Origin: Sulfurifustis sp.
GTDB lineage: Bacteria > Pseudomonadota > Gammaproteobacteria > Acidiferrobacterales > Sulfurifustaceae
DNA length: 64,000 nt
Direction of reading: 5' to 3'
Assembly: GCA_045810625.1 (NCBI GenBank)
Contig: JBJMVQ010000040.1
Location: 51,904-115,903 of the forward strand
The number at the start of each line of letters is the position of its first letter. Within the stretch, counting starts at the first letter, position 1. The position numbers and the translations under genes are program-made. Positions 42,086-44,866 of the stretch are shown piece after piece. Below the pieces are notes generated by a model, which was not told where the DNA came from, did not search any database, and saw nothing but the letters and a program-made list of their open reading frames with translations.

Positions 42086-43276
42086 ATGCCTATTATCAAA
42101 ACCATCAACAAAGGTCGTGTTCCGGTTCACATCTGGACCGAGGACATCGAGCCCGAAGCGATTCAGCAGCTCGTGAACATCTCGATGCTGCCGATCGTGC
42201 ACGGACACGTGGCCGCGATGCCGGACGTGCACGCCGGTATCGGTGCGACGGTTGGATCCGTTATTCCGACCGTGAAGGCCGTGATTCCAGCGGCGGTCGG
42301 CGTTGACATCGGCTGCGGCATGGCCGCCGTGAAGACTTCGCTGAAGGCGAGCGATCTACCCGACAGCCTTCGGACGATCCGGGGTGCGATCGAAGATGCA
42401 GTGCCGGTCGGCTTCGGGATGCACGAGCTGAACCAAGCGCCGGAAGCGCACGCGAAGCGGCTGCAGGAACGGTTGCGGCTCCTGGTGGAAAAATACCCAG
42501 AGATCGCCAACGCACAAAAGCCGTACGTGTGGGTGCGTCAGTTGGGAACGCTCGGCGGTGGAAATCACTTCATCGAGCTCTGTGTCGATGAAGGCGACGG
42601 CGTCTGGGTGTTCTTGCACTCGGGATCGCGCGGGATCGGCAACATCATCGGCCGCCACTTCATCCAGGTCGCCAAGGAAGACATGCTGAAGAAGGACGTG
42701 CACCTGCCGCATCGGGATCTGGCGTATCTCGAAGAAGGTTCGGCGCACTTCGACGGATACGTAGAGGCCGTCGAGTGGGCGCAGGACTACGCGATGGAGA
42801 ACCGGCAAGCGATGTTGCAGCTGGTGCTCGACGCGATTCGTCCGCATCTGCCGGCGTTCGATGTGGTGGGCGAACGAATCTCGGTCCATCATAACTACAT
42901 CGACCGCGAAGTGATCGACGGCGTGGGCGTCTTCGTTACCCGCAAGGGAGCGATTCGCGCCGGCGCCGGTGACTGGTGCTTGATCCCAGGGAGCATGGGA
43001 GCGCGGAGCTACATCGCAGTGGGCAAGGGAAATGCGCAAAGCTTCTACTCGTGCAGCCACGGTGCGGGTCGGCGTATGAGCCGTACCAAGGCAAAGCAGA
43101 TGTTCACGGAAGCGGACCTGATGGAACAAACGAAGGGCGTTGAGTGCCGCAAGGACCGCGGTGTTATCGATGAAGCGCCCGGCGCGTACAAGGACATCGA
43201 TCAGGTCATGGAGTTGCAAACGGACTTGGTTGAAGTCCGACACACGCTGAAACAAGTTTTGTGTGTGAAGGGGTAG
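42086..43276 (+). CDS. rtcB: RNA-splicing ligase RtcB (3'-phosphate/5'-hydroxy RNA ligase)
   Basis: 396 aa. SD aaaggag. Full-length RtcB signature (HGHVAAMPDVHAGIG, GGNHFIEL, HSGSRGIGN, SCSHGAGR). Confidence 0.95.
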   Translation: MPIIKTINKGRVPVHIWTEDIEPEAIQQLVNISMLPIVHGHVAAMPDVHAGIGATVGSVIPTVKAVIPAAVGVDIGCGMAAVKTSLKASDLPDSLRTIRGAIEDAVPVGFGMHELNQAPEAHAKRLQERLRLLVEKYPEIANAQKPYVWVRQLGTLGGGNHFIELCVDEGDGVWVFLHSGSRGIGNIIGRHFIQVAKEDMLKKDVHLPHRDLAYLEEGSAHFDGYVEAVEWAQDYAMENRQAMLQLVLDAIRPHLPAFDVVGERISVHHNYIDREVIDGVGVFVTRKGAIRAGAGDWCLIPGSMGARSYIAVGKGNAQSFYSCSHGAGRRMSRTKAKQMFTEADLMEQTKGVECRKDRGVIDEAPGAYKDIDQVMELQTDLVEVRHTLKQVLCVKG

Positions 43277-43279
43277 TAC

Positions 43280-43310
43280 CTGCCCGGGCGCTCGTCCGGG
43301 CAGTTCTTTC
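43280..43310 (+). terminator. Rho-independent terminator downstream of rtcB
   Basis: 9-bp GC-rich stem ctgcccggg/cccgggcag followed by ttctttc. Confidence 0.7.
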
Positions 43311-43388
43311 GCAGGGTTGACGGGAACCGGCATACCTCGTTGGCTTAGAACCAACGGCTTGTGAGTTCGACTCTGACAATCTGCACCA
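43311..43388 (+). tRNA. Noncanonical class-I-like tRNA with Leu(TAG) anticodon and 6-bp anticodon stem
   Basis: CGTTGG-CTTAGAA-CCAACG anticodon arm. Short variable loop (not class II). T-arm GTGAG-TTCGACT-CTGAC with a central mismatch. Acceptor 6/7 paired. CCA. Confidence 0.4.
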
Positions 43389-43473
43389 GCCGACGTGTTG
43401 GAAGGCAGACATGGCTGGCTCAAAACCAGCCGCCCGCGATAGCATGAGAGTTCGAGTCTCTCCGTCGGCACCA
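43389..43473 (+). tRNA. tRNA-Leu(CAA), class II
   Basis: Acceptor GCCGACG/CGTCGGC. Anticodon arm GCTGG-CTCAAAA-CCAGC. Long variable arm. T-arm GAGAG-TTCGAGT-CTCTC. CCA. Confidence 0.8.
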
Positions 43474-43488
43474 ATCCTTAGCGCGAAT

Positions 43489-43566
43489 GGCGGAATCGGC
43501 AGACGCGCTGGTCTCAGAAGCCCGTGCTCGTCAGAGCTTGCAGGTTCAACTCCTGCTTCCGCTACC
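43489..43566 (+). tRNA. tRNA-like gene of uncertain identity (selC-like T-arm and acceptor, anticodon arm not resolvable)
   Basis: Acceptor GGCGGAA/TTCCGCT. T-arm GCAGG-TTCAACT-CCTGC. The internal segment contains TCTCAGA but no clean cloverleaf could be fitted. Confidence 0.3.
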
Positions 43567-43569
43567 CAA

Positions 43570-43656
43570 GCCCAAGTGTTGGAACGGCAGACATGCGGCC
43601 TTGAGGTGGCCGTGCTCTTTGGAGCATTGCGAGTTCAAGTCTCGCCTTGGGTACCA
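43570..43656 (+). tRNA. tRNA-Leu(GAG), class II
   Basis: Anticodon arm CGGCC-TTGAGGT-GGCCG. Variable hairpin TGCTC-TTTG-GAGCA. T-arm GCGAG-TTCAAGT-CTCGC. G1-U72. CCA. Confidence 0.8.
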
Positions 43657-43662
43657 ACTACT

Positions 43663-43784
43663 GTCGCTTAACTCAACGGGAGAGCGCCTCTCTTACAAAG
43701 AGAAGGTCGCGGGCTCGACACCCGCACGGAGGACGCCTGATTCTCAATCAGAAAACACGGGTTTGATTCCCGTTGGAAGCGCCA
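43663..43784 (+). pseudogene. tRNA-like remnants: degenerate tRNA with ACA anticodon loop, then a 3'-half tRNA fragment with CTC loop
   Basis: First unit has T-arm GCGGG-CTCGACA-CCCGC and CTCTC-TTACAAA-GAGAA arm, but no pairing acceptor and no CCA. Second unit (about 43736-43784) has CTGA-TTCTCAA-TCAG, ACGGG-TTTGATT-CCCGT, TGGAAGC-G-CCA, but lacks the 5' half. Confidence 0.35.
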
Positions 43785-43792
43785 TTTGTAGA

Positions 43793-43877
43793 GCGCCAGT
43801 GGCGAAACGGCAAACGCCGGCGGCTTAAACCCGCCTGCCTGCCGGGCTTGTCGGTTCGATTCCGACCTGGCGCACCA
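43793..43877 (+). tRNA. tRNA-Leu(TAA), class II
   Basis: Acceptor GCGCCAG/CTGGCGC. Anticodon arm GGCGG-CTTAAAC-CCGCC. T-arm GTCGG-TTCGATT-CCGAC. CCA. Confidence 0.8.
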
Positions 43878-43881
43878 CGTA

Positions 43882-43925
43882 CCTGGGCGTAGAGGCCGGA
43901 GATTCAAATCCTCTCGTCCAGACCA
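43882..43925 (+). pseudogene. tRNA minihelix-like remnant (acceptor stem + T-loop only)
   Basis: CTGGGCG...TTCAAAT...CGTCCAG-A-CCA. D- and anticodon arms absent. Confidence 0.3.
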
Positions 43926-44048
43926 ACATCCACGTCGGGGCATTCGGATTTCCGGCCCGGCACTCCACGCGTCGGGCGCTCGCCGGCACGGACACACGCT
44001 AAGTCTTTCCGTGAAAACTCCGGCTCACCCTCCCGCCCAGACCATTTT

Positions 44049-44125
44049 TCTCCGTTCGTCTAATTTGGGCAGGACTCGTGACTTTGGATCACGCAATGGT
44101 GGTTCGAATCCATCACGGAGAGCCA
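44049..44125 (+). tRNA. tRNA-Gln(TTG)
   Basis: U1-A72 acceptor TCTCCGT/ACGGAGA. Anticodon arm CGTGA-CTTTGGA-TCACG. T-arm GGTGG-TTCGAAT-CCATC. CCA. Confidence 0.8.
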
Positions 44126-44134
44126 GTTATTCGC

Positions 44135-44212
44135 GCGCCCGTAGCTCAGGCCGGACAGAGCATGCAGCTTCTACCTGCATCGTCGAAGGTTCGAATCCTT
44201 CCGGGCGCACCA
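44135..44212 (+). tRNA. tRNA-Arg(TCT)
   Basis: Acceptor GCGCCCG/CGGGCGC. Anticodon arm TGCAG-CTTCTAC-CTGCA. T-arm GAAGG-TTCGAAT-CCTTC. CCA. Confidence 0.85.
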
Positions 44213-44272
44213 GTGGACAAGGCTTCCAAACTTGATTCTGTTCGCGACATATCGAGAAAGACAGACAAGAGA

Positions 44273-44866
44273 ATGAGAAAAGAAAACGTATTTCCGACAC
44301 CTCCATTGATTCTGGCGCTAGACGTTGGGGGACGTCCGGTCGATTGGATCCATTGGCGCGCCGCGGTGCTCCTCGTTCTTCGTGAAGAGATAACGTGGGC
44401 GACCGGCACATCGTTTCCCGTTTACGGCGGCATCAATCACGTAAGCGGCGAACGGTCGTGCGTGCAACTGAACACCATCATAGCGGTGCGAAATGTCAAC
44501 GCGTTCACGGTGGAGGACGTGACGCCTCCACTCAGCAACGCGGCTCTTTTCCGTCGCGATCGTTACACTTGCATGTACTGCGGAGATGAATTCGTAACTG
44601 CACTTCTCACACGCGACCACGTCATTCCGCGATCGCGGGGAGGCGAAGACTGCTGGAGCAATTGCGTTACCGCGTGCCGTGCGTGCAATCAAGAAAAAAG
44701 CGATCGCACGCCTGAGGAAGTGGGTTTAGAGCTGCTCGCGCTTCCGTTTGTTCCGAGCCGTATCGAGGCTTTGGTGCTCGCGAACCGTCGGGTCCTCGCG
44801 GACCAGATGGAGTTCTTGGAACGCCACTTGCCGCGTCAGCGCTGCGGATCAGCGGCGTATGGATAA
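44273..44866 (+). CDS. HNH endonuclease
   Basis: In-frame ATG at 44273 within ORF 44078..44866. The upstream part of that ORF overlaps tRNA genes. HNH motif region CMYCG...RDHVIPRSRGG...NCVTACRACNQEK. Confidence 0.75.
   Translation: MRKENVFPTPPLILALDVGGRPVDWIHWRAAVLLVLREEITWATGTSFPVYGGINHVSGERSCVQLNTIIAVRNVNAFTVEDVTPPLSNAALFRRDRYTCMYCGDEFVTALLTRDHVIPRSRGGEDCWSNCVTACRACNQEKSDRTPEEVGLELLALPFVPSRIEALVLANRRVLADQMEFLERHLPRQRCGSAAYG

Follow-up and report, generated by a model that had tools for sequence, protein, structure and literature searches.

A tRNA array with an embedded rtcB gene in Sulfurifustis: an acquired module that may protect translation against tRNA cleavage

A 64,000-nucleotide (nt) stretch of the genome of Sulfurifustis sp., an uncultured sulfur bacterium (GenBank assembly GCA_045810625.1, contig JBJMVQ010000040.1, positions 51,904 to 115,903; hereafter the window) carries a dense array of tRNA genes in which rtcB, encoding an RNA ligase, is embedded. 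The array can be identified with high confidence as a horizontally acquired long tRNA array (L-array) with an intact RtcB. It is also moderately probable (roughly 0.6) that its tRNAs and its ligase act together to protect translation when tRNAs are cleaved. RtcB joins tRNA pieces in archaeal and eukaryotic tRNA splicing. Tran et al. 2016 is reportedly among the descriptions of long tRNA gene arrays or operons. L-arrays have been described in seven phyla, and among the Proteobacteria in every class; they are spread by horizontal gene transfer (HGT) and are normally silent or cryptic (PMC8421152). An HNH endonuclease gene is conserved beside them, and cyanobacterial arrays have an rtcB gene nearby that is regulated together with them. 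In Anabaena the L-array is induced by translational stress, including ribosome-targeting antibiotics, and rtcB is co-induced. It was proposed that RtcB mends tRNAs that toxin RNases have cut and that the tRNAs of the array enlarge the pool or serve as sponges (PMC8421152).

The module in the window consists of the following features (positions are those of the window; aa, amino acids).

37429-37456 (+): putative sigma-70-type promoter, TTGCAA, 16 nt, TAGACT; the homologous locus L081 has the same two hexamers with a different spacer
37660-37989 (+): structured leader, several hairpins each followed by a U-run, e.g., 37740-37765 plus UUUUUCUUUU
37990-38858 (+): tRNA block 1, Gly(GCC), Tyr(GTA), Asn(GTT), Trp(CCA), Ala(TGC), Phe(GAA), Met(CAT) (ARAGORN; Rfam 55-67 bits)
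39354-40505 (+): SPFH/Band_7 protein, 383 aa, embedded in the array (Pfam PF01145, E 7.7e-30)
40856-42058 (+): tRNA block 2, first eight Asp, Ile(GAT), Pro(TGG), Thr(CGT), His, Glu(TTC), Lys(TTT), Arg(ACG) (ARAGORN, Rfam)
41871-41968 (+): atypical 98-nt tRNA (anticodon UAU, extra arm), which together with Met(CAT) makes up the last two of block 2 (ARAGORN, Rfam, alignment and fold)
42086-43276 (+): RtcB RNA 3'-phosphate/5'-OH ligase, 396 aa (Pfam PF01139, phrog_1075, catalytic-residue alignment)
43280-43303 (+): hairpin after rtcB, 10 bp with 8 G-C pairs, the top terminator-like match
43311-44212 (+): tRNA block 3, atypical short Leu(TAG)-like, Leu(CAA), Leu(CAG), Leu(GAG), remnants, Leu(TAA), remnant, Gln(TTG), Arg(TCT) (ARAGORN, Rfam)
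44273-44866 (+): HNH endonuclease, 197 aa, directly after the last tRNA (Pfam)
38859-38930, 41352-41521, 41600-41702, 43668-43790, 43880-43930: tRNA-like remnants in array gaps

All 24 tRNA genes called by ARAGORN in the window are on the forward strand and lie within 37990-44212, with zero outside. These 6.2 kb of same-strand tRNA genes are broken by two protein genes only (SPFH and RtcB), and the open reading frames (ORFs) of at least 150 aa in the array are SPFH, RtcB, and HNH. The Rfam gathering score is passed by 23 of the 24, tRNA-Leu(GAG) being recovered in a more sensitive run, and most array tRNAs score 52-68 bits. CCA is encoded at the 3' end of 23 of the 24. Rfam finds no family at threshold in the leader and the array gaps.

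The RtcB is full-length (profile positions 1-426 of 426 in PF01139, E 1.5e-121; phrog_1075, 481 bits, E 7.7e-144) and its catalytic residues are intact. D74, C77, N160, H161, H178, H269, and H325 correspond to D95, C98, N202, H203, H234, H329, and H404 of P. horikoshii RtcB, and the nucleophile, aligned with H404, is H325 in the HGAGR motif. Its score with the NCBIfam RtcB equivalog models, 178 bits, falls short of the cut-off of 407. The 'release_rtcB' model TIGR03073 is not reached either (150 bits against 271.8) and no PrfH-like ORF is adjacent, so that the gene is not part of a PrfH-RtcB2 ribosome rescue pair. A preliminary description of this DNA had rtcB lying between two tRNA blocks with its own Shine-Dalgarno (SD) sequence and a strong terminator. 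The position and the SD sequence stand: AAGGAG is found about 8 nt before the ATG, and the upstream tRNA-Met ends 27 nt before it. The terminator has to be toned down, as the hairpin is present but has a poor U-tract (TTCTTTC), and it is putatively a weak terminator or an element for 3'-end stabilization or processing. Hairpins of differing sequence are found directly 3' of rtcB in the homologous loci L081, L084, and L089 too, thus in four lineages including the window. The gap from the upstream tRNA to the rtcB ATG, SD included, is 10-27 nt in five loci. It leaves little room for a separate rtcB promoter, and this spacing argues that rtcB would be co-transcribed with the array tRNAs.

The arrangement recurs in homologous arrays from other metagenome-assembled genomes or metagenomes. 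The preliminary description had raised the possibility that rtcB is a housekeeping copy with synteny conserved outside any array. As far as synteny goes, the opposite is found: all RtcB relatives of at least 70% identity that could be placed (n = 4) are located at the same position in homologous arrays of 18-32 tRNAs. Their identities to the window RtcB are 92% (L081 to L083), 70% (L084 and L085), and 71% (L089 and L090). The shared order is Arg(ACG), a long tRNA(UAU), an HD_4 protein (in L084 and L089), Met(CAU), RtcB, the hairpin, Leu tRNAs, Gln, Arg(TCT), in some cases Arg(CCT), and HNH. Gene order around RtcB is thus kept in four distinct sequence lineages. L081 is collinear with window positions 37410-43726 at 79-90% nucleotide identity (mostly 79-83%) and carries the SPFH gene as well. 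Between the window and L081, the ratio of nonsynonymous to synonymous substitution rates (dN/dS) is 0.055 for RtcB (dS 0.89) and 0.12 for SPFH, and dS across the RtcB and SPFH comparison is about 0.3-0.9. Such low ratios mean strong purifying selection, implying that RtcB and SPFH are maintained while the tRNA content drifts. Neither an orthologue nor a Sulfurifustis sequence is found among the best 80 RtcB matches from the genome collection.

Other arrays carry RNA-repair genes of different kinds. The Variovorax RA8 array has an RNA_ligase of the Rnl type (PF09414) where the window has RtcB. An HD_4 protein and an AlkB-like 2OG-Fe(II) oxygenase are found in the Methylibium array, and an HD_4 protein adjoins RtcB in L084 and L089. 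R2K ATP-grasp genes are located beside the arrays in L084 and in an M. intracellulare plasmid. This convergence of differing repair genes, which is a descriptive observation and not a statistical enrichment, is the best contextual support for a repair logic.

Linkage of rtcB with tRNA genes was also surveyed beyond the homologous arrays, in the best 80 chromosomal relatives (Gamma- and Betaproteobacteria, 59-66% identity) and in 80 viral relatives from IMG/VR (44-59%), counting tRNAs within 3 kb. A database check of this kind had been suggested in the preliminary description, and co-occurrence is indeed found: in addition to the homologous arrays, 13 of the 80 viral loci have at least eight tRNAs, versus 2 of the 80 chromosomal loci with at least three, most chromosomal loci having no nearby tRNAs. 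In six viral loci RtcB is embedded among tRNAs, which are 11-80 nt away on one or both sides. A few chromosomal loci are mini-modules of tRNAs, SPFH, and RtcB; one of them, L030, has five tRNAs and an SPFH protein 61% identical to that of the window. In the annotation of Mycobacterium phage Izel (80 kb), at least 20 tRNAs are followed by an 'rtcB-like RNA ligase', a 'Band-7-like membrane protein', and a MazG-like protein, and in Caulobacter phage phiCbK a Band-7 lipoprotein is encoded directly upstream of RtcB. Protection from host tRNA cleavage was proposed for phage RtcB with tRNAs by Pope et al. 2011 (PMC3203893), and a survey of jumbo phages repeats the idea (PMC7824862). As a separate observation, the chromosomal loci (L001 to L080) have recurrent neighbours of other kinds: a protein of about 320 aa without a Pfam match (25/80), an RbfA-like gene (PF02033) directly upstream (8/80), a divergent HTH_31 regulator (5/80), and a second RtcB paralogue (5/80).

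The base composition and the boundaries of the module point to acquisition. The GC content is 67.4% in 1-30400, 57.3% in 34960-44973, and 63.0% in the right flank. The module lies within this low-GC segment of 10.0 kb, which is bounded by 44-nt direct repeats, 98% identical to each other, and contains only one other gene.

34960-35003 (-): direct repeat copy 1, left boundary; 3' half of tRNA-Lys(UUU), anticodon loop to CCA, no 5' half
35158-37038 (-): DUF3857/transglutaminase-like protein, 626 aa (Pfam PF12969, E 5.7e-30; PF01841, E 1.3e-09)
44930-44973 (-): direct repeat copy 2, right boundary; 3' half of tRNA-Lys(UUU)

The DUF3857 protein gene lies outside the module shared with L081, as homology to L081 begins at 37410. 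The repeats were considered as att (attachment) sites. By ARAGORN, no intact tRNA-Lys gene exists at either copy, and no integrase was found inside the segment. The window has a single tRNA-Lys(UUU) gene, which belongs to the array (41703-41777) and is different in sequence from the repeats. The segment looks like an integrase-less island or the remnant of an integration at a tRNA-Lys gene.

The leader upstream of block 1 (about 330 nt) folds into a structure with a minimum free energy of -151 kcal/mol (z = -3.9 against shuffles), and terminator-like sites are found in it at 37761, 37822, 37935, and 37940. It is collinear with L081 at about 80% identity. Two further possibilities were considered for this region and set aside. 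A 54-codon ORF (37507-37671) was taken as a leader peptide or small regulator, but its 29 substitutions relative to L081 are spread over the codon positions as 11, 10, and 8, and an even spread means that it is probably non-coding. Unusual conservation of the leader was suggested by the 88% column identity of an alignment tool, but a per-bin count gives about 80%, the same as in the rest of the array.

The SPFH gene, embedded in the array between blocks 1 and 2, was absent from the preliminary description. An orthologue with 94% identity is found at the same place in L081, and orthologues with 48-61% identity adjoin RtcB in chromosomal gammaproteobacterial loci. The SPFH protein is thus a recurrent partner of RtcB. 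A short reading frame at 40640-40870 (+) is located between the SPFH gene and tRNA-Asp, with a counterpart in L081 (4264-4371). It has a degenerate motif of the SEC-C type (SecA C-terminal zinc-binding) ending in (L/V)LHA, conserved in L081, and it overlaps the next tRNA; it may be a gene remnant.

Two conserved but atypical tRNAs flank rtcB. The upstream one is a long tRNA of 93-98 nt, found in four lineages (41871-41968 on the forward strand of the window; L081 5318-5415; L084 9256-9348; L089 1052-1147), always directly upstream of the HD_4 gene where present, tRNA-Met, and RtcB. ARAGORN labels the window copy Val(tac). Its anticodon loop is (U/C)UUAUNN in all four lineages, and therefore the anticodon is UAU (Ile, codon AUA). 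An additional stem of 4-5 bp in the variable region is supported by compensatory changes in all four, and the loop of this stem has a conserved 7-nt sequence, CAGAUNA, resembling the anticodon loop of tRNA-Ile(GAU). The downstream one, at 43311-43388 (+), is the first tRNA-like gene after rtcB. It has a Leu anticodon (UAG) in 78 nt, lacks the long variable arm, and is below the Rfam tRNA threshold, its best match being tRNA-Sec with 26.7 bits (gathering score 47). Short Leu-anticodon tRNAs of 75-78 nt exist at the same place in L081 and L089. Other unusual tRNAs were seen in the wider set of loci. L030 has an 84-nt tRNA(UAU) close to its SPFH-RtcB pair, a tRNA with anticodon UUA ('tRNA-Stop'; L001 7325-7397) lies upstream of SPFH-RtcB in Ca. 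Thiodiazotropha endolucinida, and a tRNA with anticodon CUA (called 'Pyl'; L215 10825-10896) is part of the plasmid array of Nostoc PCC 7524.

That an HNH nuclease gene follows the last tRNA was stated correctly in the preliminary description, with a start that needs correction. The earlier start at 44078 belongs to a GTG ORF overlapping tRNA-Gln and tRNA-Arg. The likely start is the ATG at 44273, because the resulting product of 197 aa matches homologues of 196-197 aa. The protein (HNH_5, PF14279, E 1.2e-16; HNH, PF01844, E 5e-15) consists of a conserved N-terminal domain and an HNH core of the Cas9/IscB/McrA type with CxxC...CxxC. C100, C103, H116, N130, C135, C138, and N139 are invariant or nearly so in 26 homologues. 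With the predicted structure (predicted local distance difference test score 74.7), Foldseek against the PDB matches only the HNH core (HNH domains of Cas9, IscB, Gme, and McrA), and the N-terminal domain has no sequence or fold match in the PDB. Of ten plasmid relatives sampled, seven are associated with arrays of 19-37 tRNAs, either at the end or inside. The full-length ones (30-44% identity, 72-92% coverage) are found on megaplasmids of Methylibium, Variovorax, Burkholderia sp. M701, Polaromonas, M. intracellulare, and Mycolicibacterium CBMA 213, where the gene closes the array at its 3' end or is placed within it. The relative in Nostoc PCC 7524 is a core-only match located upstream of a 20-tRNA array. 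The array-linked relatives span Betaproteobacteria, Actinobacteria, and Cyanobacteria, and HNH is found directly after the last tRNA also in L084 and L089. One of the plasmid arrays has a further neighbour of interest: a gene annotated as 'phage exclusion protein Lit family' and a site-specific integrase are located some 10 kb from the 37-tRNA array with terminal HNH of plasmid pM7012 in Burkholderia sp. M701 (L212 19965-20552), and a translation-targeting defence gene thus lies near an array.

The preliminary description had counted the HNH protein in the logic of tRNA break and repair. Nothing links it to repair. Its full-length relatives mark array ends on megaplasmids but are also found as chromosomal genes beside mazG without tRNAs, and a mobility or selfish role fits at least as well. 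A passage of PMC8421152 proposes such a role for the HNH of L-arrays and cites homing of T4 SegB in a tRNA region as a precedent. The position at array ends agrees with this proposal, and the protein is most probably a selfish or mobility nuclease that accompanies arrays, not a component of the repair chemistry. It is conceivable, at somewhat long odds, that it is instead a McrA-like nuclease of restriction or defence, or that it serves the cell as its chromosomal relatives would, with no part in homing, mobility, or tRNA repair. Arrays had been expected around metagenomic relatives of about 50% identity, and this was ruled out: these closest relatives, full-length at 45-53% identity apart from one at 43%, are solitary genes on chromosomes with no tRNA nearby. 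In the 23 clustered metagenomic loci (L096 to L118), the neighbours resemble divergent mazG (13), GreA/B (8), and aminotransferase (11) genes, labels that come from reading example sequences. This suggests a cellular role of the family independent of tRNA arrays. 'McrA' also occurs among the source names of the relatives, and in PADLOC the core has weak matches to PtuB and type IV restriction. Against a restriction or cellular role speak the position of the gene after the last tRNA in the window and in L084 and L089, the array linkage of most sampled plasmid relatives, and the SegB precedent.

If the module works as proposed, the array would be transcribed from an upstream promoter through the terminator-rich leader, and such a leader implies that it would normally be silent or weakly expressed. 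Upon transcription, tRNA processing would free the tRNAs and an rtcB mRNA with its own SD sequence and 3' hairpin. The additional tRNAs would top up the tRNA pool, and RtcB would reseal tRNAs, possibly also other RNAs, that ribotoxins or stress-induced RNases had cut to 2',3'-cyclic-phosphate and 5'-OH ends. Together these activities could keep translation running under tRNA-directed attack or translational stress. The repair-or-replace module of the preliminary description is partly supported, by its context: the position of rtcB in the array, selection, the GC-deviant segment between repeats, the repair enzymes of other arrays, and the phage arrays.

A number of points weigh against this reading. 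All steps of the mechanism are drawn from sequence and gene context. A complete set of tRNAs could not be replaced, as the array covers 17 of the 20 amino acids, Ser, Cys, and Val being absent (the sister array L084 covers all 20), and at least five decayed tRNA remnants lie in its gaps. A consensus promoter scan upstream of the array lists none, the putative promoter being left out because its score of 8/12 is below the scan threshold; with the terminator-like hairpins of the leader, the module may be silent. None of the selected ORFs between 29.4 and 47.4 kb is an anticodon nuclease or a tRNA-targeting toxin by Pfam, and no search aimed at these was made. The substrate of RtcB need not be tRNA, because RtcB repairs rRNA in other bacteria. 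The Band-7 proteins of phiCbK and Izel, which had been considered as relatives of the window SPFH protein, have no BLASTP similarity to it, and the superfamily annotation alone is common. Finally, the view is that of one 64-kb window, and any other rtcB copy and the housekeeping tRNAs of the genome would lie outside it.

Several of these observations would also be expected of a decaying passenger, that is, a cryptic relic of an array once borne by a plasmid, an integrative and conjugative element, or a phage, which is eroding in the chromosome and whose RtcB, SPFH, and HNH have no present role in the host. The missing Ser, Cys, and Val tRNAs, the lack of an integrase between the repeats, the hairpin and U-run elements upstream where a consensus promoter is lacking, and the description of L-arrays as cryptic (PMC8421152) all agree with erosion. 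So do the remnants at 41600-41702, the orthologue of tRNA-Ser(CGA) in L081, and at 43668-43726, the truncated orthologue of tRNA-Val(TAC) in L081, neither of which is called any longer as a full tRNA. A relic without function would not be expected to hold RtcB and SPFH under strong purifying selection over the observed range of dS, to keep CCA in nearly all tRNAs and Rfam scores of 52-68 bits in most, or to keep gene order around RtcB in four lineages, and the passenger explanation is on balance unlikely. A role for RtcB in maturing atypical RNAs of the array, for instance in taking the extra arm out of the 98-nt tRNA(UAU) or in ligating tRNA fragments, would explain why atypical tRNAs flank rtcB in all four lineages and why several remnants in the array resemble half tRNAs. 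The array encodes no splicing endonuclease among its ORFs of at least 150 aa, however, and the insertion of the 98-nt tRNA folds as an ordinary extra arm. The remnants look like decay products because intact tRNAs correspond to them in the sister arrays, and the tRNAs in most phage arrays with RtcB are ordinary. Maturation is therefore very improbable.

The explanation closest to protection against tRNA cleavage is that the array boosts capacity: its tRNAs would tune tRNA abundance or the supply for particular codons, either under stress or to the benefit of a mobile element, and RtcB would serve general rRNA or mRNA repair without any link to anticodon nucleases. This is consistent with the induction of the Anabaena array and rtcB by ribosome-targeting antibiotics (PMC8421152), with the religation of 16S rRNA by E. 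coli RtcB, which a passage of PMC10272220 cites, and with the RbfA-like ribosome factor that often adjoins chromosomal relatives of the window RtcB. On the other side, phage RtcB is repeatedly embedded tightly among tRNA genes, and phages face tRNA-targeting defences and have no need of operons for rRNA repair. The sister arrays also hold candidates for tRNA-directed repair (HD_4, AlkB-like). Capacity and counter-defence overlap and are hard to part by sequence alone; a booster with no role in countering tRNA cleavage appears improbable, about as much so as the passenger. The joint protection of translation by tRNAs and RtcB remains the preferred reading.

It may be speculated, with little confidence, that long tRNA arrays in general are 'tRNA insurance cassettes' that repeatedly take varied tRNA-repair enzymes into the operon (RtcB in the window; Rnl-type, HD_4, or AlkB-like in sister arrays), that in this lineage the terminator-rich leader gates the cassette and opens under translational stress, and that the atypical tRNAs flanking rtcB, one of them with an anticodon-like extra arm, are dedicated partners, decoys, or sensors of RtcB and not ordinary decoders. 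What long tRNA arrays do in bacteria is only partly understood, and the window adds comparative support to the published idea of protection by array and RNA repair. In the proteobacterial lineage that it reveals, rtcB and SPFH have become part of the tRNA operon and are retained by selection, while single tRNA genes come and go. As a compact cassette of about 7.5 kb, the module is directly testable against known anticodon nucleases.

Some features of the flanks may also be noted. A pair of 44-nt direct repeats with 84% identity (45041-45084 and 45120-45163, 79 nt from start to start) lies just outside the right tRNA-Lys fragment and precedes a glycogen-debranching-type gene (45272-47413); they could be arm-type sites of a recombinase. 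On the left, stressosome-type genes (28612-30317, reverse strand) are located at the edge of the high-GC flank, where GC drops. They include an RsbR-like STAS protein (PF01740, RsbRD_N) at 29397-30317, whose small neighbours are RsbS- and RsbT-like by reading of the translations. The adjoining stretch 30400-34960 (61% GC) may be a second island; it encodes two secreted-looking proteins of no assigned family and an HD-GYP-type response regulator (33699-34721).

The hypothesis of the preliminary description is reasonable but already in print (PMC3203893, PMC8421152, PMC7824862), and its application here is inferential. Because the layout and the repair-or-replace reading have been described for long arrays and phages, the module is a new example and not a new kind of system. 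It is slightly beyond the literature in the embedded and selected rtcB and SPFH, the varied repair enzymes across arrays, the terminator-rich leader, and the two conserved atypical tRNAs. Among known systems, the rtcBA-rtcR operon (E. coli, Salmonella; the rtc locus of P. aeruginosa) shares RtcB with the window, and the P. aeruginosa locus also holds an SPFH gene, PaFlo8 (PMC13086221). Unlike in that operon, no RtcA or RtcR is found among the array ORFs of at least 150 aa, and rtcB lies among tRNA genes and not under a sigma-54 activator. The module is in principle similar to the repair of PrrC-cut tRNA-Lys by T4 Pnkp/Rnl1, in which an RNA ligase supplied by a mobile element undoes a cut in the anticodon loop. 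T4 heals and then seals, whereas one-step sealing of 3'-phosphate and 5'-OH ends by RtcB is predicted here. In phage tRNA clusters such as those of Izel, Cluster K1 mycobacteriophages, and jumbo phages, an RtcB-like ligase follows or interrupts a tRNA array, sometimes with a Band-7-like protein, as in the window. The phage RtcBs are only 44-59% identical, however, and the window, without phage structural genes, has a chromosomal copy in a repeat-bounded island.

The closest resemblance is to the L-arrays themselves, with dozens of tightly spaced, co-oriented tRNAs with CCA, a patchy and HGT-like distribution, HNH at the edge, and rtcB near. The window array differs in being incomplete (17 amino acids) and in that no TrcR-like regulator is seen in the repeat-bounded segment, and the HNH proteins of cyanobacterial arrays match only the core of the window HNH (residues 85-161). 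In Anabaena, the regulon of the TrcR repressor includes the trn operon, rtcB, the HNH gene all8564, and a slipin (SPFH) gene (PMC10272220), so that the same kinds of genes are found in this stress regulon and in the window. While the rtcB of Anabaena is chromosomal and co-regulated only, rtcB and SPFH in the window are physically inside a gammaproteobacterial array operon.

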